Source: Bythopirellula sp. (GTDB lineage: Bacteria; Planctomycetota; Planctomycetia; Pirellulales; Lacipirellulaceae). From it: a DNA stretch of 64,000 nt. This document shows positions 23,703-56,906 of the stretch, piece after piece. A model generated the notes under the pieces. The model made no database searches and was not told the origin of the DNA. It saw only the letters and a program-made list of their open reading frames with translations. The DNA is taken from NCBI GenBank assembly GCA_965216565.1, contig OZ244170.1, positions 2,944,001-3,008,000 of the forward strand, read 5' to 3'. Each line of letters starts with the position of its first letter. Positions within the stretch are counted from its first letter, which is position 1. A program made the position numbers and the translations under genes.

Positions 23703-26700
23703 TCAAGATTGGGCCAGCTTACCCGTGGCCGCCAGCCCCTGCTTCACCGATTCCAGCCATTCTTCGGTGGGAGCCTGATAGGGGCGGAATTTTACCTGGG
23801 TCCCTTGGTCGTCGCGATAGAGAATCGCGCGGTGCTCGCCTAAGCGGCCCGCAGCCGGCGAATCGATCAACGTCGTAGAATCAGCTGGGCTCATCTGCAG
23901 TGCTACGCGGAAGTCAATTTCGCGAAGCGTCAATCGATCGATACAGCGTGTGAGACTGTTATACGAGTCGGCCCACACGAACACATGAATCCCAACACCA
24001 GGACCCTCGCGCAGTAGTTCGCGAAACTGTTTGTCGAGCGCAGGGGTATCGCCATTGGTGCCTCTCTTGGAGAAACCGAAATCGTCTTCCTTCATTCGCA
24101 GATCTCGAAACTGAGCCAGATCATGCAGGATCAATACCTGCTTGGGTGCCACCTCATCGGGAGCCTCGGTTCGCTTTTTCAACTCAGCCGATAGCGAGCT
24201 AATTACATGCTTAGCATCTTGCGGACCGTTGACCTCGACACTAGCCCCTAGTGCCTCGGCAACCCGGGCCCAAGTTTTCAGATATTGCGATTCTGGTCGC
24301 GAACCATCGAGCACAGAAATCTGCGGCGAAGAACTCTGATGTTGGTCCTTTCGCTGAGCCACGAGAGCAGTCGCTGCTGTGCAGAATATCCCTAACACCA
24401 GGGCTTCGTCTTGCCCCACTACAAGCAGATTGTTCCCACCCTGGCGGCGTAGTACCAGGTTCGTCGGCGGACCGATTCGCACAGCCGAGCCCAGCCAGAT
24501 TGTTGGTTCGACAACTTCAGATGTATCCTGACTGGCAACCGCAGCCACAAGCGATCCGTTACCCTTCGGATCAGCAGGCACATTGCCTTCAAAAACAATG
24601 GCCGGTTCCTCTTTGTACCCCAGTTGCGGAAGCTGTTCGCGCAATCCAGCCAAATAAACTTGCCGTTGCTCATCGCTCAGCCAAACGACTTGGAACAAGC
24701 TATTACCTTCCACCATCCCATTTTGATCGTTGTAGATCGCTTCGCCGGGACGGCTAAGCAATCGAGCGGCGATATTGTCGTCGCTCAGAATCAGATGAGC
24801 GTCGGCCTCGCTGCATTGCAATGCGATCCGCACAGCCATTTGTCCTAATGTGCTGCGGGCCAGCGAATAAGCACCTGCAAGTGTTTGCGAACCCAAGATC
24901 ACGTGGATGCCAAAAGCTCGACCTTGCCGCACTAGCCGATCCAATAGTAAGGCAGAATCCTGGGCCAGCTTGTCGTCAACGACAAACAGTTCTTGAAATT
25001 CATCGATGATCAAGACAACACGCGGCATCGGCTCTGAGGAGGCTTTGCGCATACCCGCCAAATCCTGGACGCCGTGTTCGCGAAATATCTCGCCGCGGCG
25101 GCGCAGTTCGTCGTCGAGTCGCTCCAGAACGCTCACGCCAAATTCGCGCTCACTCTCCACGGCAATCACACGAGCATGGGGCAATTCGCCCGTAGCATAC
25201 GCCTTGAATTCAACACCCTTTTTGAAGTCGACGAGGTATAGTTCCAATTCCAAGGGGCTATAGTGCAACGCCGCGTTGGTAATGAAAGCATGCAAGAGCG
25301 TCGACTTACCAGAACCCGTTTTCCCAGAAATCAACAAGTGCTGAGAAGTACCACGACCGAGCCGCACCGTCTGTAGTTCATGGGCCCCTGCCCTACCAAT
25401 GGGCACCACCAGTTCGTGAGCTGTGCTACCAGACCAAATGTCTTCTTCTTTGGGTGCGACAACTTCAAATGGCACCTCCACCCGACTAGCCTCACGCGAT
25501 TCCTGCGCAACATGGTGCAATAGTTCGGTGAGCTTCTCCCTGGGTGGCAAAACATCGAGCTGAAGTGGCAGCTTTTCGTAGAGCGGGTAGTTCCAAACCA
25601 ATCGGTCGTTGGCATAGTGCAGGTGGACCGAATCTTGCAGCAGATCCTCTGCCTGGAAATCGCCAGGAAGCTTAGCCCCAGAATCGATGCTCATCAGCGT
25701 GTACACCCCACACCGAGGCCCCGTCTTTGCGATCGTCTTGATCTTTCGCAAGGCCGAATCGCTGAGCCCCGCTGGGAAGTTGGCCACCACCAACACATGG
25801 TAGGGCTCCGCCACTTCGCCAGCCTGCTCGTTGTAGGCTTCCAGTGATTCGAATTCATTCCGCAAATACTTCTGCAATACCTTTTCCAAGTGGTCCGACA
25901 ACACGCCGAGACGCTCGTCAATTTGACGCGAGTCGGTCAGAATTCGACCACCGACGAGTTGTTCGTCAAAATCAGCAAGATGCATAAACGTGGCGAAGTT
26001 CTCGCCTAGGGCAGAAGGATCGATAATGGTGAATCGTAAACGTCCCGCTGGAATCGTGGTGAGGAAGCGTAACATCATCGACTGCAACACACCGACTGCC
26101 GCGGTGCGACCTGCTCCCGCAGTAGTGATCACCATGGAAGGATGCTCACTGAAATTCATCAGGGCGGGAAACTTCAGCTCTGTCTGCTGAGGCACCAGGC
26201 GAGTATCTTCCGACAGTCCCTGTTTGACGGCTGAAAGTGGTAAGCTGTAACTACCAAACTGCATGGCGGGCGGTTTCTGTGTGGGCCTCGTCCAATCGTG
26301 CCACTCGGTGGTTTGCCAGTTGGGGAATAGTTGATTGCAAGACTCTTCGATCTCGCTAAGCTCTGCGACCACCCGATTGAAACCCTCGTGCCAGGTGTCG
26401 GCCATCGATTGCCAGCCGGATTCGTAGCTTTTCTGGGCTTGGGTGATTCTGGCTTGATAGTCGGCTTCGATTTTCTCCAAACCCGTTTTGCATTTGGCTG
26501 CTAAGTTATCCAACTGCGGTGGGTACTTTTCGTCGGCCTCATGCTGAGCGGATGTGCTCTCTTGCTCAGCCTTGTCGATCGTCTCTTGTTTCTCGCGCTC
26601 CGCCAATTCGAGATGCATTTTGGTTTGTTCTTCGAGTGCAGACAAATCGCTCAGGCGTTGTTGTTCGGCCGCCTCCACCTCTTGATCTCTCTGAGCAACC

Positions 26701-27659
26701 AACGCTTCCGATTCCTCATCGCAATGCGTTTGAGCAATGTCCTGGGCAGTTGCCTCCCATTCGTTCGCACGTTCCAGCAATACTCGAATTAGGCCGTACT
26801 GTTCGAGCGATTCCCTTCGCACCCGATCCATGAATAGCCAATACCCAACCGCCGTGAGTGCCCCTCCTGCAGCGATAACCACTAGTGGAGCCCACCAAGT
26901 CAGCCCTAACAAAGGAAGACCTATGATGCCGCAGAGTATGGCCGCCCCCAGCCACCAGAGCGCCCAACGAGAACTTTCGAGCATCAAAGATGGCAAGAGC
27001 TGTGCTTGCATCTCGAGCACTCCGCGATGGGCCTGATCGATGGCTGAGTGAAGTCGGCTCTCGGCGGGCACTTCAGATGTGAGCTGCTCAGAACCCTCCA
27101 CTTCAGAGGGCAATACGGGGTCGAACTCGAACGACTCAGCCAAGTTGCTAAGCTTTCGCATTGCCAGCAAGGTGTCGGCATCGCGAAGTAGTCCCTCAAT
27201 GCGAGAATGGTGGGCGTTTAACCGTTGCCGCGTTTCGTGAAGAGCCATTCCCGGCAAGTCTTTCCCCGCATCATAAACGGCCAGCGCCTGCCATTCACTC
27301 TCCTTCTTACGCCGATCAATTTCCAGAGTTTTTTTCTTCTGAGCTGTTTCGAGGTTGCGGCGTTGTTCGTCGTAAGCCAGTTCCGCCTCGTTCAAGGTCT
27401 TCCGCAACTTGTCCTGAGCCTGCAACTTCGACTGACTATAGAGATTCTCCAATTCACGTCGCCACAATGAATTCTCCTTCACAAACTCATCGACTGAGGT
27501 TTGGCGCTCTTGGTCTGCTTGGGACAGCTCGCGTTCTAGAGATTCCGCCAGATCCTTTTCTCTCGCGGCGCGAGTATCGGCCAGCTGCTGCAATTGCTGC
27601 ATCAGTTCTAGCTGTCGTCGTGTCGATAGTTTTGGGGAATCGGTCAACGGAGATCTCAA
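23703..27659 (-). CDS. EccC/EssC-like FtsK/SpoIIIE ATPase with coiled coils and 2 TM helices (start uncertain)
   Basis: Intact GKTGSGKS / VDFKKG / LIIDEFQE / RQGRAFGIH domain flanked by two degenerate FtsK-like domains; downstream of WXG100-like genes. Confidence 0.85.
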   Translation of the reverse strand: MRSPLTDSPKLSTRRQLELMQQLQQLADTRAAREKDLAESLERELSQADQERQTSVDEFVKENSLWRRELENLYSQSKLQAQDKLRKTLNEAELAYDEQRRNLETAQKKKTLEIDRRKKESEWQALAVYDAGKDLPGMALHETRQRLNAHHSRIEGLLRDADTLLAMRKLSNLAESFEFDPVLPSEVEGSEQLTSEVPAESRLHSAIDQAHRGVLEMQAQLLPSLMLESSRWALWWLGAAILCGIIGLPLLGLTWWAPLVVIAAGGALTAVGYWLFMDRVRRESLEQYGLIRVLLERANEWEATAQDIAQTHCDEESEALVAQRDQEVEAAEQQRLSDLSALEEQTKMHLELAEREKQETIDKAEQESTSAQHEADEKYPPQLDNLAAKCKTGLEKIEADYQARITQAQKSYESGWQSMADTWHEGFNRVVAELSEIEESCNQLFPNWQTTEWHDWTRPTQKPPAMQFGSYSLPLSAVKQGLSEDTRLVPQQTELKFPALMNFSEHPSMVITTAGAGRTAAVGVLQSMMLRFLTTIPAGRLRFTIIDPSALGENFATFMHLADFDEQLVGGRILTDSRQIDERLGVLSDHLEKVLQKYLRNEFESLEAYNEQAGEVAEPYHVLVVANFPAGLSDSALRKIKTIAKTGPRCGVYTLMSIDSGAKLPGDFQAEDLLQDSVHLHYANDRLVWNYPLYEKLPLQLDVLPPREKLTELLHHVAQESREASRVEVPFEVVAPKEEDIWSGSTAHELVVPIGRAGAHELQTVRLGRGTSQHLLISGKTGSGKSTLLHAFITNAALHYSPLELELYLVDFKKGVEFKAYATGELPHARVIAVESEREFGVSVLERLDDELRRRGEIFREHGVQDLAGMRKASSEPMPRVVLIIDEFQELFVVDDKLAQDSALLLDRLVRQGRAFGIHVILGSQTLAGAYSLARSTLGQMAVRIALQCSEADAHLILSDDNIAARLLSRPGEAIYNDQNGMVEGNSLFQVVWLSDEQRQVYLAGLREQLPQLGYKEEPAIVFEGNVPADPKGNGSLVAAVASQDTSEVVEPTIWLGSAVRIGPPTNLVLRRQGGNNLLVVGQDEALVLGIFCTAATALVAQRKDQHQSSSPQISVLDGSRPESQYLKTWARVAEALGASVEVNGPQDAKHVISSLSAELKKRTEAPDEVAPKQVLILHDLAQFRDLRMKEDDFGFSKRGTNGDTPALDKQFRELLREGPGVGIHVFVWADSYNSLTRCIDRLTLREIDFRVALQMSPADSTTLIDSPAAGRLGEHRAILYRDDQGTQVKFRPYQAPTEEWLESVKQGLAATGKLAQS

Positions 27660-27667
27660 GAAAACAA

Positions 27668-27892
27668 TTAACTTTCACAGTCGCGGTAAACGTGATCCAG
27701 CAATTGTTGCATACGGGCAACCGCCTCCTGCGTCTTCTTAATTGCCGGTCCCATGGGTTCTAAATAGGTTTCGCAAAAACTTTGGCTCACAGAATCTTCC
27801 CAATGATCGCCCGTATCGCGCCAAGCCATTTGCAACTCTTCCAGCGCATCGCGTAGTTGAGCGCTGCTAGTTTCCAGGTCCCATTTTCTCAT
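27668..27892 (-). CDS. Small WXG100-like helical-hairpin protein
   Basis: 74 aa; central W-E-D; C-terminal YRDCE (YxxxE). Confidence 0.65.
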   Translation of the reverse strand: MRKWDLETSSAQLRDALEELQMAWRDTGDHWEDSVSQSFCETYLEPMGPAIKKTQEAVARMQQLLDHVYRDCES

Positions 27893-28116
27893 TTCGTAAT
27901 TCCAACAAAATTAACTAGCAGCCCACAGCGATTCGGCATGTGTCACGATGTTCAGACTTTCTTCGTGCAACTCCTTCGCCTCGATGGAGAGAGAGCTGCG
28001 AGTGTTCGCACTCACACAAGTTTCTTATATCAATTGGGGCTAATCTTTCTGTTTCTCTGGCAAATTTCTGGCATCACCACTCTCGCTAGCAGAATTAGCC
28101 GCAGGACGGTTGTCTG

Positions 28117-28605
28117 CTAGGGGCGGTTTTCAATTTTATAGTTGTCGAGCGCGCGAACAATCTTCTTCAGTCGACCTTTTGCTTGTGGCATTTCTTCCTC
28201 GAGAAGTTGCCTCAACACGGAGAGGCGACCTTCGAACTCGAATAGTTCGTGACTCAATTCTCGCCGCCAACGTTTCACCAACTCAGTCTTGTCTTCGCAA
28301 TAACCGAGACGCGTCTGCGCTTTTTTCAATAGCTCGCGCTCTTCACGGCAGGAGGGGCGTTCATCGACCACCGGATACATGAGACACCGATTCAGATCGA
28401 CTTTCGCCTGATGCACTTGCTCAGAAGCCAAGCGAACTTGTTCTTTCCAGTGCGGAGGCCGATCTGAGCGCAACCAATCGTCAGCCTTGCGAACTTCGCC
28501 AGCAAGTGTCTCCAGAGCATCTTTGGCTCGCTGCTCGAAACGCGCGATTGCCACCTGGAAAGACTCTATCGCATCGATTGATCTGACTTGAGCCGATTCA
28601 CTCAT
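28117..28605 (-). CDS. Helical hypothetical protein in the WXG100 operon
   Basis: 162-aa amphipathic helical ORF between the two WXG-like genes. Confidence 0.75.
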   Translation of the reverse strand: MSESAQVRSIDAIESFQVAIARFEQRAKDALETLAGEVRKADDWLRSDRPPHWKEQVRLASEQVHQAKVDLNRCLMYPVVDERPSCREERELLKKAQTRLGYCEDKTELVKRWRRELSHELFEFEGRLSVLRQLLEEEMPQAKGRLKKIVRALDNYKIENRP

Positions 28606-28656
28606 GCGATGATGTCCACGTAAGGAAGAAATTCTCTGTTTGCTGACTGCGACCAA

Positions 28657-28929
28657 TCACTTCTGCTGCAAGTACTCTTCAATCCGCTCTGCTTTGCGGA
28701 GCAAGAATGGCCCGTACTCTTTCGATTCCTCCATCGATCGGGCGATTAGCTTGAGGTGGTGCTCAAACTGTTCGACAAATTTTGCGTGCTCTTGATCGCG
28801 CCACGTTCCATTTAGATTATGCATCTGATTGGCCAGCGTGGACAAACGCTCTTCCAACTCGCTATTGAATGTGCTTAGCTGATGCGCAAATCGCCTGAGT
28901 TCAGCAGGATCGACTACTGCTTGTGACAT
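28657..28929 (-). CDS. WXG100 family type VII secretion target
   Basis: 90 aa; VDPAELRRFA N-terminus; central W-R-D; GAGG RBS. Confidence 0.85.
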   Translation of the reverse strand: MSQAVVDPAELRRFAHQLSTFNSELEERLSTLANQMHNLNGTWRDQEHAKFVEQFEHHLKLIARSMEESKEYGPFLLRKAERIEEYLQQK

Positions 28930-29224: not shown

Positions 29225-32200
29225 CTACAGCGTTTCGCTCATTGAGCTCGATCGCAGATGCGGTGTCGATACTTTGCCGTTCTTCCATTCTTGATCGATG
29301 CGTGTCATCTCTTCGGCAACCGCTTCCACGGTTCGCTTAATCTGCTCTTCAGTATGCGTGCTGGTGATGAAGAACCGCAATCGTGCTGCGCTCTCCTCAA
29401 CAGCTGGGTACAAGATCGGCTGAACATTGATGCCACGTTCAAACAACGCGTGCGACAGCTTGACCGCGTTCGCTGAGTTGCCAGTGATCACCGGTACCAC
29501 GGGCGTGTTGTTACTTAACCCCGTGTTGAGCCCAGCTTGCTTGGCCAAGTTCAGGAACAATCGCGAATTCTCTGAAAGCTTCGCCACCCGATCTGGCTCT
29601 TCTTGCAGCAGCCGGATCGCGGCCAATGCGGCTGCGGTATTTGGCGGACTCAAACCAACGCTATACACAAAGCCCGGTGCGGTAAATTTCAAATACTCCA
29701 CAAGTGCATTGCTGCCGGCGATGTATCCGCCGCAACTGCCAAACGACTTGCTGAGCGTCCCCATCCAAATGTCGACGTCGCTGGGGTTCATGTCGAAGTG
29801 TTCGCTCATTCCGCGACCATGCAAGCCCATGGTCCCGATGGAGTGAGCTTCGTCGACCATCAAGAATGTCTTATGCTTTTTCTTGATTTCAACGAACTTG
29901 GGCAACTTCGGATAGTCGCCGTCCATGCTGTATACACCCTCGACCACAATGAGTACACGACGGTACTCGTGCCGAACGTCTTCGAGAATCCGATTACAAT
30001 CTTGCCAATCGTTATGAGGGAATGGACGCCGCCGTGCGCCAGAGAGCATGGCACCTTGGACAATGCTGTTGTGCGATAGTGCGTCGTGCAGAATCAGGTC
30101 GCCGGCACCAAACAGGTGACCGATAGTCGTTTCGTTGGTGGAATGGCCGCCCACGAAAACAACCGACGACTCGGTGCCAATGAAATCGGCTATTGCGCGT
30201 TCTAGCTCAAGATGAATAGTCTTCTGTCCCGAAACCACTCGGCTGGCAGAAACACTGGTGCCGTACTTGCCCACAGCCTGCTGGGCAGCTTCGATAACTG
30301 CCGGATCGCCGGACATGCCCAGATAGTTGTAGCTGCAGAAATTAATGTATTCCTTGCCGTCAATCGAAGTACGATCGTTGGTGATGCCTTGATGGACGTT
30401 GAAAAAGGGATTCGGCAAGCCTGTGGCTTCCACAGATCTCAGATTGTCTTGTAGACGACAATACTCGGCCCCCTTCTCGAATACATAGTCCTCTTCGGGA
30501 ACGATGCAGCTCGCGGGGCGGGGCGGCTTGCCCTTAATCTCGCCACCCATATGCTCTTCGATGGCTTCCACCACTTCGCCGCAGGTCTCCATGATGGGCA
30601 GGACCTGTTCGGGGAAACGTCCCCCAAAGGTTTCTTCGAGCGCCGCGATGATCTCAACTCTCTCTAACGAATCAAGGCCCAACTCGACAATATTGGTATC
30701 CCAATTCAACTCACCAACCCGTTCACGCCCGATTTCGCGAACCTTCTCGTAAACGATCTCCGCAATTTCCAGCGAACGACCGCTTCGGTGCGACGTGGGT
30801 TGTGGTGCTGACTGAGCCGACTCGACGGAGGCGGGGATCGTGCCGTTAACTTCTTCCAGCTCGGTGAGAGATTCAATGTCTGTGTCATCAACCTCTGCAA
30901 CATCGCCTTCTTCGACCCAGGTAATTTCATCTGCCGAGGCTCGTTGACGGCGAACAGAGGGAGTAATTTCCACCTCACCCGTCTCCAGCGACCAGCTTGC
31001 CAATACCGATAGTGTGCCGGCCAAGTAGCAATCGCGGGCGGCATGACGTTGGATTTTGCCGCTAGACGTTTTGGGGATGCTGCGTGCTTTGATTAGCACC
31101 ACGCCAGCAACCGATATCTCGTGCACGATGGCAACCTTCTTGCGAATTGCCTCGATAATGGATGCGTAGTCTAAATGGCGCTGTCGAATCGTCTCCTGAA
31201 TAATAACAAGCCGTTCCTGCCCCTCTTCGCCAACCACCACTGCGGCGCCGGCGCCAGACTCCACGTGTTCGTGGGCATCTTGGACAGTGTGCTCGATATC
31301 CTGAGGGTAGTGATTCACTCCACGAAGGATGATCAAGTCTTTCAAACGTCCGGTTACGAAAAGCTCGCCGTCGGATAAGAACCCAAGATCGCCCGTTCGC
31401 AAGAAAGGCCCCCGACCATCGCTCAACCGCGCCTGGAATGTTTCCTGCGTGAGTTCTGGTCGTTTCCAATAACCACGGGCCACGCTAGGGCCAGCCACCC
31501 AAATTTCGCCTACCTGATTTTCACCCAGGTGCTGACACGAGTCTGGATTGGCAATCACAATCTGCTGATCGAGTAGATTGCCGCCACTACCGACGAGACT
31601 GCGGTAGTTCTCCTCATCGGGCCCCGCCTCGACGATTTCGTTTTTCTCTAGGGCTTCGGTGGTCACCTTCTTGATCGTGGGTTCGGCCTGCTTAAAGCCC
31701 CCCGTCACAATGAGTGTGGCTTCCGCTAATCCATAACAGGGATAGAACGCTTCTTTGCGGAACCCGCACTCGGCAAACGCTTCGCTAAAACGTTGCATCG
31801 TGTCGGCACGCACAGGTTCTGCCCCATTGAAGGCCAGCGACCAGCGGCTGAGGTCCAAGGTCTTCTTTTGTTCTGCCGTGACTTTGTCGACGCACAGATC
31901 GTATGCAAAGTTGGGACCACCACTAATTGTTGATCCGCTTTGAGTGAGCATTTGCAGCCAACGCACAGGTTTCTGCAGAAAGTGGGTGGGGGAGAAAAGC
32001 GTATTCGGCCGACCCATGTACAGTGGCTGCAGGATTCCTCCGATAAGCCCCATGTCGTGGTACAACGGCAACCAAAAACAACCGGTACCCGAACGCGTAT
32101 GCTCAAATGCATAGGAGATCATCGCCGAGTTGTGCATCAGATTCGCATGCGACAGCATCACTCCCTTGGGAGTCCCCGTCGAACCCGAGGTGTATTGCAA

Positions 32201-32782
32201 AAAAGCGAGCGTATCGCCATGCACTTCGGGGCGACGCCATTGGTCGGCCAGCGAGCTCTCCCACTGATCGGACGCACGCCAACGCAATTGCTGAAGGGCC
32301 GGCGTATCGCCAATCATGGTCCGCACGCGCTCCAGAACTTCAAAGGTTGTGAGCGCTACCTTGGCTTCGGCATCGTTGGCGATCGCATCGATACGGGCCA
32401 TGTTTCTGTTGCGGCGCGGGGGATATGCGGGAACCGCTGTCACCCCTGCATACAAACAGCCAAAGAACGCGGCAACAAAATCAAGGCCCGAGGGATATAG
32501 CAGTAGCGCACGCTCCCCCTCTAAATCCATCGCTTGCAAACCGGCCGCTATGGCACGGGCCTTGCGATCGAGGTCGGCGTACGACCATTCGATTTTTTCT
32601 CGTTCGCCGTCGACGAGAAAACGAAAACCCACGTCATCGCCTTGGTGCAACGCGCGGTGTTGCAACAATTCGATAAGGTTGGATGGACCAAAGAAAGAAC
32701 CGGGAAGATGGTCGAGATGCACTGTTGTCTTTTTCCTGAAGGCAGGCTTAGGCGGGGATTTGACCAAGGTCACTGAGTGCAA
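29225..32782 (-). CDS. Fatty acyl-AMP ligase-ACP-alpha-oxoamine synthase fusion (start may be GTG 32722)
   Basis: LQYTSGSTGTPKG, PCYGLAEATL, LRTGDLGF, PKTSSGKIQR; ACP LGLDSL; SYNYLG, DEAHS, GTLSKSFG (PLP Lys). Confidence 0.9.
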   Translation of the reverse strand: MHSVTLVKSPPKPAFRKKTTVHLDHLPGSFFGPSNLIELLQHRALHQGDDVGFRFLVDGEREKIEWSYADLDRKARAIAAGLQAMDLEGERALLLYPSGLDFVAAFFGCLYAGVTAVPAYPPRRNRNMARIDAIANDAEAKVALTTFEVLERVRTMIGDTPALQQLRWRASDQWESSLADQWRRPEVHGDTLAFLQYTSGSTGTPKGVMLSHANLMHNSAMISYAFEHTRSGTGCFWLPLYHDMGLIGGILQPLYMGRPNTLFSPTHFLQKPVRWLQMLTQSGSTISGGPNFAYDLCVDKVTAEQKKTLDLSRWSLAFNGAEPVRADTMQRFSEAFAECGFRKEAFYPCYGLAEATLIVTGGFKQAEPTIKKVTTEALEKNEIVEAGPDEENYRSLVGSGGNLLDQQIVIANPDSCQHLGENQVGEIWVAGPSVARGYWKRPELTQETFQARLSDGRGPFLRTGDLGFLSDGELFVTGRLKDLIILRGVNHYPQDIEHTVQDAHEHVESGAGAAVVVGEEGQERLVIIQETIRQRHLDYASIIEAIRKKVAIVHEISVAGVVLIKARSIPKTSSGKIQRHAARDCYLAGTLSVLASWSLETGEVEITPSVRRQRASADEITWVEEGDVAEVDDTDIESLTELEEVNGTIPASVESAQSAPQPTSHRSGRSLEIAEIVYEKVREIGRERVGELNWDTNIVELGLDSLERVEIIAALEETFGGRFPEQVLPIMETCGEVVEAIEEHMGGEIKGKPPRPASCIVPEEDYVFEKGAEYCRLQDNLRSVEATGLPNPFFNVHQGITNDRTSIDGKEYINFCSYNYLGMSGDPAVIEAAQQAVGKYGTSVSASRVVSGQKTIHLELERAIADFIGTESSVVFVGGHSTNETTIGHLFGAGDLILHDALSHNSIVQGAMLSGARRRPFPHNDWQDCNRILEDVRHEYRRVLIVVEGVYSMDGDYPKLPKFVEIKKKHKTFLMVDEAHSIGTMGLHGRGMSEHFDMNPSDVDIWMGTLSKSFGSCGGYIAGSNALVEYLKFTAPGFVYSVGLSPPNTAAALAAIRLLQEEPDRVAKLSENSRLFLNLAKQAGLNTGLSNNTPVVPVITGNSANAVKLSHALFERGINVQPILYPAVEESAARLRFFITSTHTEEQIKRTVEAVAEEMTRIDQEWKNGKVSTPHLRSSSMSETL

Positions 32783-33750: not shown

Positions 33751-35277
33751 TTAGTAGACAACATCAAAGCCAAACGTCACGCCGTTGATTAATATCTCTT
33801 GCGTGCCGCCATCGATGAAACCCATATTCGGCAACGTGTAATCGACCTGTTGCGAGGCTCGACGGACGTTATCGATAAACAGCGCGTTATAACCTAGCTT
33901 CGCTGAGATTGAATTCGTGACCTGATAGCTCGCCTGAACTCGCATCTCAACCGTCGGCGAAAAATCTTCGTCGCGGCGGCCATGATTGGAATATGTGGGT
34001 GGAAAATAGAGAGGGTGATTATGCTGACCTGTAATCAAGTCCTCTCCCAGTGCAGCGGTCTGTTCCCAATTTTGAATATTGTACCCAAACAAAAACCGAC
34101 CACCCCAATCCAGCCGAATGCGATTGTGTTGGTGCAACCATCGCAACGCCACCTGAGGACCTATCAAGTTATTGTCGATTCTAGTATCCCAAAAGCTTCG
34201 CCCCAGGACACCACCTTCAGCATCCACTAGAAAGTCGTCTCGCAGTCGCAAGTAACGCACGCCATAGCTCATCTCTAGCTCGTTATCTTGATGTTTCACC
34301 ATGTGATGACGATTGGTCAATCGGTGTGTTCGCATAAACTCAATGCCCGAAGTGGTTGTTGAGTTACGGACAAAAACAGATTGAAATGAAGTCGGAAGTA
34401 AGACAAGGTCGTCTAGGTCCGCAGGCGTTCCGCCGACCAGGAAACTATCAGGAATTTCTCCTGGATCCTCGAGATCGAAGCCATCTGGACCAAACTGCCC
34501 GTCTCGATCGATATCATCAGCGAACCCATCGCCGTCTAATACGCCATCGCCATTATCGTCTGTTTCCAAAGCACCACCCGGTATTCCAGAGAATGTGCCA
34601 TCGACCAAATCCAGGTAACCCACCATAAGGTTTTGAGGGTCATTAAATACGATTAGCACAGAGCCGAGCGGACTCAGGAGTTGGTTGGGGGCACCCGGGA
34701 ACCGACTTGGCAAACCAAGTGGAGCTCCAGTGACAGTATCATCTTGACCCGTAAGACCAAAACCATAAATCTCTTCTTGAATCGCGACCGGCCCATCAAG
34801 GATACCGACCAGCCAGCCTGAGTTCTTATGGAAGTGCCCGAACTCATAGCGTTCTCCCCAGCCGAATGTAGCCCGCGGAGGTGAGTTTTGAATTCCACTA
34901 GGTAACATCGGTGGAGCGATGAAATTAGGATCGTTCAGATTGAAGAATACATCTTCATCATCGCCATTTGGATCGACTTCAAAGGGACGACCACCTACAA
35001 AGTTTCTCCACGGGTTTGTGGATGCATTACTCAAATTGGTCGTACCTAACACAGACCGCTCGCCCGTGACCGCCCAGTTCAGCTTGTCGTAGTGGAAGAA
35101 GTATCCACTCGACCGGCGAATTGGGGTCCCATCGAAGTCGATGTCGACCGGCGAGAAGAACTGTAGCTCGTGGTCGGGTGTATCCACCCAGTCATGAAGC
35201 TGCGCACTTGCTGTTGCCGCGCCGAAGGAAATCATCAGGCCGACAAGCAGCCACGTTTTGAATCTGTAGACAGTCAT
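33751..35277 (-). CDS. Outer-membrane beta-barrel protein (BBP7-like)
   Basis: Signal peptide; GVRYLRLRDDF, NNLIGPQ; alternating beta-strand C-terminus ending in aromatic Y. Confidence 0.75.
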   Translation of the reverse strand: MTVYRFKTWLLVGLMISFGAATASAQLHDWVDTPDHELQFFSPVDIDFDGTPIRRSSGYFFHYDKLNWAVTGERSVLGTTNLSNASTNPWRNFVGGRPFEVDPNGDDEDVFFNLNDPNFIAPPMLPSGIQNSPPRATFGWGERYEFGHFHKNSGWLVGILDGPVAIQEEIYGFGLTGQDDTVTGAPLGLPSRFPGAPNQLLSPLGSVLIVFNDPQNLMVGYLDLVDGTFSGIPGGALETDDNGDGVLDGDGFADDIDRDGQFGPDGFDLEDPGEIPDSFLVGGTPADLDDLVLLPTSFQSVFVRNSTTTSGIEFMRTHRLTNRHHMVKHQDNELEMSYGVRYLRLRDDFLVDAEGGVLGRSFWDTRIDNNLIGPQVALRWLHQHNRIRLDWGGRFLFGYNIQNWEQTAALGEDLITGQHNHPLYFPPTYSNHGRRDEDFSPTVEMRVQASYQVTNSISAKLGYNALFIDNVRRASQQVDYTLPNMGFIDGGTQEILINGVTFGFDVVY

Positions 35278-35704
35278 AGGTTCCAACTATCCTTGTTGGA
35301 GCACCAGCCAGTGGCTGATGCAATTCAAATGGTCAATGCCCTCGCACTCATCGATTGAGGACTCTCCGTGCCGGTAGTATCGGATTTGTGAGTCGTGCCG
35401 GTTGAGTAAGATCGGTAAAGTCTGACGAAAATACCGGCAAACCAACGCGAGGTGCTAGCAACAGAGCGTTCCTGACGGCGTGGTTTCAACCGACCGCTAG
35501 TCAGGCGAAACGCTACCAGCGAAGCGTATTTCTGCTTTCGCAGGCACCGTTCGTTTGTTCCCCTCGGAGCCAAGGGATATACTTCTGCTGGACCATTGCT
35601 AGCGACGTTGCCGGAGTCTTTGAGCCGTCTGCGGCCGCTAGCGAATGCCGACAGTTAATTCATGGGGTTTGCTTCGAGTCGGACCGCTAAGCGGTGCGTT
35701 GAAT

Positions 35705-55679: not shown

Positions 55680-56906
55680 CTAAAAAGAGAGCTTCAGCAT
55701 TCGCCAGCCGCTCCAATTGAATTGGTCAAACCGAATGACCTTTTTCAATAGCCAATAACCAACCAGAGCTAGCACCAGATTCCCCGTCCAGACGGCGATG
55801 GGATGCACCATGCCGCTTTTGGCGAAGTCGACCGTCACGACCAGCATGGGATAGTACAGCAACAAGATAGGCAGAAAACAAGCAAAGAAACTGCCCCAAA
55901 ATTCGCCCCGCCGCAACAAGATGGCCACCGGCGCGCCGACCAATACAAAGCACAGACAACTCAACCCACCCGACCAACGACGGTGTGGTTCGGTATACAG
56001 GCGTTGCAATCGTTCTTGAGAACCACGCAGTTGGCCCTCGCGTGCGCGCCATACTGGCTCAGCAACCTCATAGCTGCGGCCCGTCATCAAGGCATAGCCC
56101 ATATCAGCAGTCATTTCCTGCTGGAGCTGGTCGATTCTGTCGATCGTCTCCGACTTGGCAGGTCCGATTTCCCAGAGCGCTAAGTTGGAAGGGCTTTGCG
56201 AACGACTCATTTCGCCGGTAAACATCTCGATCGGCCACGACTCTTCGAACACGCCGGGATAAGTTCCCGATCCCCCCAGCAGATCACCCTCCGCATTGAG
56301 CAATCTTACTTTCACTGCATTCTGAACCCGATCGACGGAAACCTCCGCTTCGTCCGCAGTGATCAGTACCGGTTTGCCTTTGGTAGAAGTGATTTTGATG
56401 ATTGGCTGCAAGAGCGTGCTGCCAGAAACGCCGCGAACGTTGATTTCTAGATTTCCTAGCCGCAAGGCACGTTTGGTCTTGAGACGCCCGTACACAATCT
56501 CTTCGAACGATTCCAAGAATACGGCCTGCACCCCGCCACGGCCCCAGGATACCGCTTTGTCATTGATCCAAACCGCCAGCACACTCACGGCCAGCGCCAC
56601 AATCAGCGTTGGCCAAACCATTGCCATGGGTGAAATCCCAAGCGATTTCACGGCGATGACTTCGTTCGAGGCCGCTATTCTGCCGTATACAATCGTGCCA
56701 GCCAGCAACATAGTTCCCGGCACCGTGAGCGCGAGCGATTGGGGTATGAAATAGGGAATCGTCCGCAAGACACCAACTAGTCCGTAACCTTTGTCGACAG
56801 CTTCCTCACCCACCAAAATCAGCATCACAAACACCGTCATCGTGGTCAGCGTGACCATAAAGACGGTGAGCAGCTCAAAAATCACATAGCGGGTTAGAAG
56901 TCGCAT
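55680..56906 (-). CDS. LptF/LptG family LPS export permease
   Basis: MRLLTRYV, YGRIAASNEVIAVKSLGISP, multiple TM, EPHRRW..LVGAPVA. Confidence 0.85.
   Translation of the reverse strand: MRLLTRYVIFELLTVFMVTLTTMTVFVMLILVGEEAVDKGYGLVGVLRTIPYFIPQSLALTVPGTMLLAGTIVYGRIAASNEVIAVKSLGISPMAMVWPTLIVALAVSVLAVWINDKAVSWGRGGVQAVFLESFEEIVYGRLKTKRALRLGNLEINVRGVSGSTLLQPIIKITSTKGKPVLITADEAEVSVDRVQNAVKVRLLNAEGDLLGGSGTYPGVFEESWPIEMFTGEMSRSQSPSNLALWEIGPAKSETIDRIDQLQQEMTADMGYALMTGRSYEVAEPVWRAREGQLRGSQERLQRLYTEPHRRWSGGLSCLCFVLVGAPVAILLRRGEFWGSFFACFLPILLLYYPMLVVTVDFAKSGMVHPIAVWTGNLVLALVGYWLLKKVIRFDQFNWSGWRMLKLSF

Follow-up and report, generated by a model that had tools for sequence, protein, structure and literature searches.

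A WXG100 and EccC/EssC-like ATPase gene set of Planctomycetia as a candidate minimal type VII-like exporter

Four co-oriented genes in a stretch of the Bythopirellula sp. genome encode a WXG100 protein, a protein modelled as a long helical hairpin, a second small WXG-like protein and a three-module ATPase, and their homology to the core of type VII secretion is well supported by sequence comparison and structure models. The stretch, hereafter the window, is 64,000 nucleotides long (positions 2,944,001 to 3,008,000 of the forward strand of contig OZ244170.1, GenBank assembly GCA_965216565.1), and the genes are referred to here as wxgA, mid, wxgB and the ATPase gene. We put at about one in two the probability that this chromosomal, vertically inherited combination of a solo WXG protein and a three-module YueA/EccC-like ATPase is a minimal type VII-like system for export across the cytoplasmic membrane. 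Within this reading we infer the transport step, the oligomeric state, the protein pairings and the periplasmic end point.

Type VII secretion has been studied almost only in Actinomycetota and Bacillota, where the ATPase is found within a large membrane complex. The planctomycete set is a further instance of a module already in print (Zhang et al., 2012; PMC3482391), to which we add its class-wide single-copy distribution, its retention under dispersal, its two sub-modules, the Imm33-like fusions of mid and the non-conservation of a C-terminal YxxxD/E signal.

Composition of the set and its relation to the type VII core

The original prediction for this DNA had named four co-oriented genes with the lengths and motifs listed here, and all were present on the minus strand, as read from the sequence and its open reading frames (ORFs):

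28657..28929, minus strand: wxgA, 90 aa, with a 'TWRDQEH' motif (ORF reading)
28117..28605, minus strand: mid, 162 aa from an ATG (ORF reading)
27893..28116, minus strand: non-coding gap between mid and wxgB, 224 nt (sequence reading)
27668..27892, minus strand: wxgB, 74 aa, with 'HWEDSVS' and ending 'VYRDCES' (ORF reading)
23703..27659, minus strand: gene for a membrane-anchored EccC/EssC-like ATPase, 1318 aa from a TTG

Because protein-level relatives of all four keep one order in 17 of 17 judgeable related loci, the four ORFs are, on sequence grounds, genuine genes and not chance reading frames. The spacers measure 51 nt between wxgA and mid, 224 nt between mid and wxgB, and 8 nt between wxgB and the ATPase gene. 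The longest ORF for mid begins at a TTG at 28656, 17 codons upstream of the ATG, giving 179 aa; public annotations adopt the 162-aa version (database protein P0132), and the database form of the ATPase (P0001) has 1314 aa.

The ATPase matched FtsK_SpoIIIE in Pfam at 114.7 bits and, among the NCBIfam models, TIGR03928 (EssC) at 105.6, TIGR03924 (EccCa) at 103.4 and TIGR03925 (EccCb) at 99.2 bits. Its closest solved relatives by sequence were T. curvata EccC (4nh0), EccC5 and YukB. An AlphaFold2 model of residues 440-1318 (pLDDT 80.4) found its best fold match in the three-ATPase cytoplasmic domain of T. curvata EccC (4nh0; E 1.2e-29 over ~985 columns), followed by EccC D2-D3 and EssC and then by FtsK motors; weaker matches in sequence or fold include FtsK, TcpA and TrwB. 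The protein divides as follows, with column identities taken from an alignment of 17 full-length sequences:

26967..27659, minus strand: residues 1-231, charged N-terminal region (column identity 24-40%, n=17)
26829..26966, minus strand: residues 232-277, 46-residue hydrophobic stretch (KD19 maximum 2.08)
26253..26828, minus strand: residues 278-469, second charged linker or stalk (column identity 26-34%)
25455..26252, minus strand: residues 470-735, module 1, degenerate and P-loop-like (no Walker A lysine; 'G-x-G-R' replaces GK[ST])
24660..25454, minus strand: residues 736-1000, module 2, the sole module with intact motifs (matches EccC D1, D2 and D3 by sequence)
25299..25325, minus strand: Walker A of module 2, G779-KTGSGKS-T787
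24999..25019, minus strand: Walker B of module 2, hhhhDE, residues 881-887
23706..24659, minus strand: residues 1001-1318, module 3, degenerate and FtsK-like ('VGQDE' replaces Walker A)

In module 2, GKTGSGKS and DEFQ are identical in all 17 sequences, and the Walker A lysine is missing from modules 1 and 3 in the same 17. Module 3 is clearly homologous to module 2 (hhalign probability 96.6%, E 5.5e-10). Module 1 contains a weak FtsK_SpoIIIE stretch (22.3 bits), aligns by hhalign with 74% probability to module 3 and 3% to module 2, and folds as an alpha/beta module in the AlphaFold2 model; it is weakly supported as a P-loop homologue, an assignment made mainly on the fold model because the hhalign and Pfam support is weak. 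The single ATPase of the original prediction is indeed one protein, but it comprises three modules, only one of them active.

Residues 232-277 form the sole hydrophobic stretch of the ATPase besides a buried strand in module 3, and among the 17 sequences the hydrophobicity is kept and the sequence is not. They are read as a two-helix membrane hairpin with an outer loop of few residues, which would be the only anchor. Such a hairpin would place both flanks in the cytoplasm, namely the 231-residue N-terminal part, which reads as a coiled coil, and the ~1040 residues past the anchor. The protein thus has the architecture of EccC (T7SSa, Actinomycetota) and EssC/YukB (T7SSb, Bacillota), with N-terminal membrane helices and three tandem FtsK-like P-loop domains, and its scores lie below the equivalog cut-offs. 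Its likeness to these ATPases comprises the best sequence and fold matches, the N-terminal two-helix anchor, the tandem FtsK-like modules and the WXG100 partner genes. It differs from them in having one competent module and a charged N-terminal extension of 231 residues where they have FHA domains, and the set as a whole differs in that the partner membrane proteins were not found in the genome and the host is a lipopolysaccharide (LPS) diderm.

Protein wxgA passes the Pfam WXG100 cut-off (PF06013; 34.0 bits, cut-off 27.3) and stays under that of NCBIfam TIGR03930 (30 bits, cut-off 44.85). Members of the WXG100 family measure about 100 aa and fold as helix-turn-helix proteins whose turn carries W-x-G. 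A profile made from wxgA and 16 relatives (alignment A1, 17 sequences) found its best solved relative in H. pylori HP0062 (3fx7/2gts; E 4e-11, full length), with a W-R-D turn common to both (W43-R-D45 in wxgA), and then matched B. anthracis EsxB, followed by firmicute EsxA. W43, D45 and E47 are invariant in the 17 sequences, and the C-terminus is conserved (PFLLRKAERIEEYLQQK; PFLLRKAERIEEYLQQ). The protein has no signal peptide (KD19 hydropathy maximum -0.08), and a hydrophobic N-terminus was found in none of the three small proteins, which fits Sec independence. By these sequence criteria wxgA is a WXG100 protein of HP0062 type. HP0062 is described as a homodimer that forms a four-helix bundle, its gene lying in a cluster with an FtsK/SpoIIIE gene (PMC3397514, which cites Pallen 2002 for noting the module); it resembles wxgA in the W-R-D turn, the lack of a signal peptide and the FtsK/SpoIIIE gene in its cluster, and differs in its host, an epsilonproteobacterium.

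The second small protein, wxgB, scored 19.2 bits against Pfam WXG100, under the 27.3-bit cut-off. Its turn is W31-E-D33 and its C-terminus reads R-D-C-E; W31, D33 and P46 are invariant in 16 wxgB sequences, most of which carry R-[DE]-C-E near the C-terminus. Alignment of the wxgA and wxgB profiles (A1 against A2) by hhalign gave a probability of 43% and an E-value of 2.4e-4 with the W-x-D turns aligned, which constitutes a weak tie, and the top solved match of wxgB was S. aureus EsxA at E 0.07. No other protein in the whole genome matched WXG100 besides wxgA and wxgB.

The AlphaFold2 model of mid is one long antiparallel two-helix hairpin (pLDDT 87.9; helices 10-76 and 87-159, ~70 residues per arm). 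A Foldseek search with this model gave generic coiled-coil hairpins only and no specific match (best E 0.08), and Pfam gave nothing at E <= 0.01 and nothing for LXG (PF04740), PE or PPE at E <= 1. The family comprises 2960 cluster representatives at E <= 0.001; among the 120 relatives listed, none carried a Pfam family and most were named "hypothetical protein" by their sources. A relationship of mid to WXG100 or LXG proteins was rejected on sequence (hhalign 7% to wxgA and 1.6% to wxgB; nothing in Pfam), and matches of the mid profile to MHC class I helices among solved structures (E ~1e-3 to 0.1) were taken as chance helical matches. The other 16 aligned mid sequences bear low-complexity tails of 20-80 residues, and the window copy has none. 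In the alignment, the stretch that matches the gap at 27893-28116 encodes the Pro/Ala/Ser-rich tail of mid in relatives, so the window gene seems to have lost it. No terminator-like site was found on the minus strand within this gap, and a promoter and terminator scan (one promoter-like and six terminator-like sites, with 2.8 and 6.0 expected from shuffled sequence) was uninformative on operon structure.

Longer relatives of mid carry an additional domain. Among the best 150 representatives, all 12 of at least 328 aa have a C-terminal Imm33-like domain (PF24719), 11 of them above the Pfam cut-off; these proteins of 328-380 aa are P0248, P0259, P0264, P0279, P0331, P0334, P0337, P0339, P0346, P0366, P0371 and P0387. 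An ESM Atlas cluster of 433 members (353 aa) includes the Imm33-like domain in 64% and is commonest in Planctomycetota. A word-based search with the Imm33-like part of the mid fusions returned the query itself only. The Imm33-like family was first described among immunity proteins of polymorphic toxin systems (Zhang et al., 2012; PMC3482391). The layout of the longer proteins resembles the "carrier plus cargo" arrangement of LXG proteins.

Distribution and inheritance of the set

Twenty-three related loci were fetched, of which 17 could be judged; five were cut at a contig end and one (L021) was cut inside the set. The order wxgA, mid, wxgB, ATPase was found in all 17, with wxgB of L024 and L028 seen only through frame reading. 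Going by record titles, these loci span Bythopirellula, Aeoliella, other Pirellulales, Pirellulaceae, Isosphaeraceae, Gemmata and a metagenome-assembled genome (MAG) labelled Phycisphaera. Identity of wxgA to the window protein falls from 78-86% in Lacipirellulaceae to 62-64% in other Pirellulales, 52-54% in Gemmata and Isosphaeraceae, and 40% in the MAG labelled Phycisphaera.

Across 151 genomes sampled evenly from the phylum, the ATPase was found in 14 and wxgA in 15, which were the same 14 and one fragmented assembly. For the class, 151 Planctomycetia genomes of at least 90% completeness were sampled; wxgA was present as a single copy in 112 of them (71 of 89 genera), and mid was likewise found in 112, the same genomes except two. 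By hand count, wxgA and mid lay within about 1 kb of one another in 99 of the 111 class genomes that have both.

Eleven of the remaining 12 genomes belong to one family (f2). The complete f2 genome G043 retains all four genes at three places, 2.50 Mb for wxgA, 4.30 Mb for mid with wxgB and 5.92 Mb for the ATPase gene, and in G118 of the same family the four genes lie on four contigs; G137, like G043, keeps mid next to wxgB. Retention of the four genes after dispersal is good evidence of joint function. Synteny in relatives, which the original prediction had proposed as a check, was found in most of them but is not universal, the genes being dispersed in f2 and all kept. As an observation in its own right, G043, G118, G137 and other f2 genomes document the break-up of an operon without gene loss.

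Two further arrangements separate the genes into parts. A second mid-wxgB-ATPase set lacking wxgA, and far from the first set, was found at all five second-copy loci examined (L036-L040, in genomes G200, G236, G288, G192 and G224 of family f89; the G236 contig is titled Isosphaeraceae). The 9.3-Mb genome G008 encodes wxgA, then a membrane protein of 124 aa with two helices, then a soluble ATPase of 960 aa that has no anchor of its own (L042, G008:C1:1426000-1436000), with no mid or wxgB near this split set. Because the f89 second sets lack wxgA and the G008 wxgA has no mid or wxgB nearby, the set behaves as two sub-modules, wxgA on the one hand and mid plus wxgB on the other, each able to accompany an ATPase.

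The original prediction had remarked that WXG100 genes outside monoderms were noted before, and Zhang et al. (2012; Biol Direct 7:18, PMC3482391) do describe a planctomycete set: footnote 6 to their Table 1 lists a solo WXG protein with a three-module YueA-like ATPase whose middle module alone is active, in planctomycetes, verrucomicrobia, some proteobacteria, cyanobacteria and bacteroidetes, and states that such sets 'appear to be mobile versions of T7SS'. The window set agrees with this class in its WXG protein, its three-domain FtsK/HerA ATPase with the middle domain alone active, and its Gram-negative lineage. It also contains the 162-aa long hairpin and a second WXG-like gene, neither of which appears in the footnote. 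Whereas the published class is called mobile, the set considered here is single-copy, class-wide and kept when dispersed, and no mobile-element genes are common to its loci. Single-copy occurrence, retention under dispersal and identity falling with taxonomic distance disfavour the label 'mobile' in this lineage; the sequence comparisons argue for vertical, housekeeping-like inheritance and not for a mobile element.

One locus outside the named planctomycetes, L026, comes from a MAG of an uncultured Granulosicoccus sp. (a gammaproteobacterial bin), and its ATPase is 74% identical to that of the window. Since this identity exceeds that of most named planctomycete relatives, L026 is probably a mis-binned planctomycete contig.

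Export and its alternatives

If the set is an exporter, the ATPase would oligomerise into a ring as EccC does, with its membrane hairpins lining a pore and so constituting the translocon, and module 2, the single active module, would drive transport. By analogy to HP0062 and firmicute EsxA, wxgA would serve as a homodimer, either as a WXG100 substrate or as a co-factor. Proteins mid and wxgB would associate as an elongated bundle of helices, a carrier-type substrate handed to the ATPase and possibly analogous to LXG proteins with their Lap partners or to PE-PPE pairs. A helical secretion signal in three parts has been reported for an LXG domain together with two small Lap hairpins (Klein et al., 2024; PMC10801868). 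The planctomycete set resembles LXG/Lap1/Lap2 and PE-PPE in that one long helical hairpin and two small hairpin proteins are encoded together beside the ATPase, and the mid relatives with a linker and a C-terminal globular domain add to the likeness to LXG; it differs in that the window mid has no cargo. The periplasm would be the end point of export, given that the set has no outer-membrane component beside it. Its inheritance as a single copy throughout the class points towards an envelope or housekeeping function and away from warfare.

Several results weigh against export. The ATPase scores far under the NCBIfam cut-offs (778 bits for EssC, 509 for EccCa and 347 for EccCb), and its membrane part is merely a two-helix hairpin with almost no outer loop. 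Neither sequence nor fold ties mid to LXG, PE or PPE in Pfam, Foldseek or the solved-structure search, so the likeness lies in shape and gene context only. Conservation of wxgA is unusually high for an exported effector (78-86% within the family and 52% to Gemmata), and a structural or regulatory partner would fit it too. All-against-all comparison of the related loci gave no gene common to them besides the four and no outer-membrane partner, which leaves passage beyond the periplasm unexplained. A 2023 review describes Gram-negative sets of this kind as not functionally confirmed (PMC10765036), and a full-text literature search found no experimental study of the module in Planctomycetota, proteomic and genetic studies included.

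The secretion signal belongs with these results. WXG100 signals have been given as a C-terminal YxxxD/E (Daleke-type) or as HxxxD/ExxhxxxH (Poulsen et al., 2014; PMC3935865), and the original prediction had read the YRDCE end of wxgB as the former. This did not hold up: among 16 wxgB sequences the tyrosine is seen in that of the window alone, and none of 17 wxgA sequences has YxxxD/E. A loose HxxxD/ExxhxxxH pattern is found at residue 52 in 13 of the 17 wxgA sequences; it counts for little because it lies off the C-terminal end and also matches mid at shifting positions.

The lack of canonical partners also weighs against export; these were sought in the whole genome to which the window belongs (one contig, 5.21 Mb, 94.3% complete). 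There was no match to EccB, EccD or EccE at E <= 0.1, and none to EssA, YukC/EssB or EsaA. Searches for mycosin gave generic subtilases only; these lie far from the set, and the best of them scored 116.9 bits where the cut-off is 278.75. The original prediction of a WXG100 and EccC/EssC-like core without canonical type VII partners, made for the window, thus extends to the genome.

The single YukD match in the genome (33 bits) is a 124-aa ubiquitin-like protein encoded 1.05 Mb from the set, and it was rejected as a type VII part, its gene adjoining a ThiF-type E1. At this separate locus (L007, G000:C1:4022372-4025584) the E1 has 416 aa, and the frame that follows reads like a JAB/MPN peptidase and has no Pfam match. 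The group has the look of a bacterial system for ubiquitin-like conjugation, with no relation to type VII secretion.

The main rival to export is an adaptor or remodelling role at the cytoplasmic face, which we regard as possible if on balance unlikely. The tethered ATPase would then remodel or assemble structures at the inner membrane face, for example in FtsZ-less division, budding or invagination, and the hairpins would be adaptors or regulators that never cross. Such a machine would suit the single-copy, class-wide occurrence of the set, which is that of housekeeping genes, the very high conservation of wxgA, an ATPase that lacks a periplasmic domain and has a long charged region on either side of a minimal anchor, and the absence of a linked outer-membrane partner; the authors of the HP0062 structure likewise weighed a chaperone or adaptor role (PMC3397514). 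However, all characterised WXG100 and EccC/EssC relatives act in protein export, as summarised in a review (PMC10765036), and wxgA was not found in 39 of the 151 class genomes, whole genera included, so it is not essential to the planctomycete cell plan.

An improbable alternative is a conflict system, in which a 'mobile version of T7SS' would export toxins or cargo related to immunity, and mid would serve polymorphic effectors as their targeting domain. Its support comes from the mobile label of Zhang et al. (PMC3482391), from the Imm33-like domain of the longer mid relatives and from the second cassette of some f89 genomes, one of them titled Isosphaeraceae. Against these stand the single copy of wxgA in all 112 class genomes that have the gene and the fall of its identity with taxonomic distance (78-86% to 40%); moreover, no toxin, immunity or mobile-element gene is common to the loci, the window mid has no cargo domain, and the flanking genes in the window belong to ordinary metabolism.

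That the set is a DNA translocase, or a coupling protein of conjugation type, together with accessory proteins is very improbable: the ATPase does belong to the FtsK/SpoIIIE-HerA superfamily and has the weaker FtsK, TcpA and TrwB matches, but EccC and EssC beat FtsK and the coupling proteins in both sequence and fold, a separate bona fide FtsK is encoded elsewhere in the genome (217 bits), no relaxase or other conjugation gene is linked, and the partner genes encode WXG100 proteins.

If the hairpins are indeed exported, the planctomycete set would define a minimal type VII translocon and a Sec- and Tat-independent route into a diderm periplasm. A bolder version of the export reading, which we hold to be doubtful, is that the set represents an ancestral housekeeping exporter of Planctomycetia, in which a ring of EccC-like subunits with a single active site would alone move a tripartite helical bundle into the periplasm of an LPS diderm. 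Were this so, the logic of carrier and targeting factors that LXG/Lap and PE/PPE share would predate the split of the monoderm type VII systems, and the ATPase alone would suffice as a translocon. The wide single-copy distribution makes a housekeeping role worth testing, and since genetically tractable planctomycetes exist, the question of export can be put to experiment.

Genes surrounding the set

The window encodes an LptF/LptG permease at 55680-56906 (150 bits) and a BBP7 beta-barrel porin at 33751-35286, which fit an LPS outer membrane. The original prediction had also listed an MlaD-like protein, which a Pfam scan of 44 of the 50 ORFs with 120 aa or more did not recover.

The genes flanking the set are those of ordinary metabolism, an enolase and a fusion of fatty-acyl-AMP ligase (FAAL), acyl carrier protein (ACP) and aminotransferase. 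The fusion lies directly upstream of the set (29225-32782, minus strand) and is a 1185-aa protein in which the ligase and an acyl carrier domain are joined to an AONS-like aminotransferase of class I/II. Its position is kept in nine related loci (identity 74-78% in eight, one further at 54%, one at 58%) and is not seen in Gemmata, Isosphaeraceae or Pirellulaceae. The protein may make an amino- or sphingolipid-like lipid.

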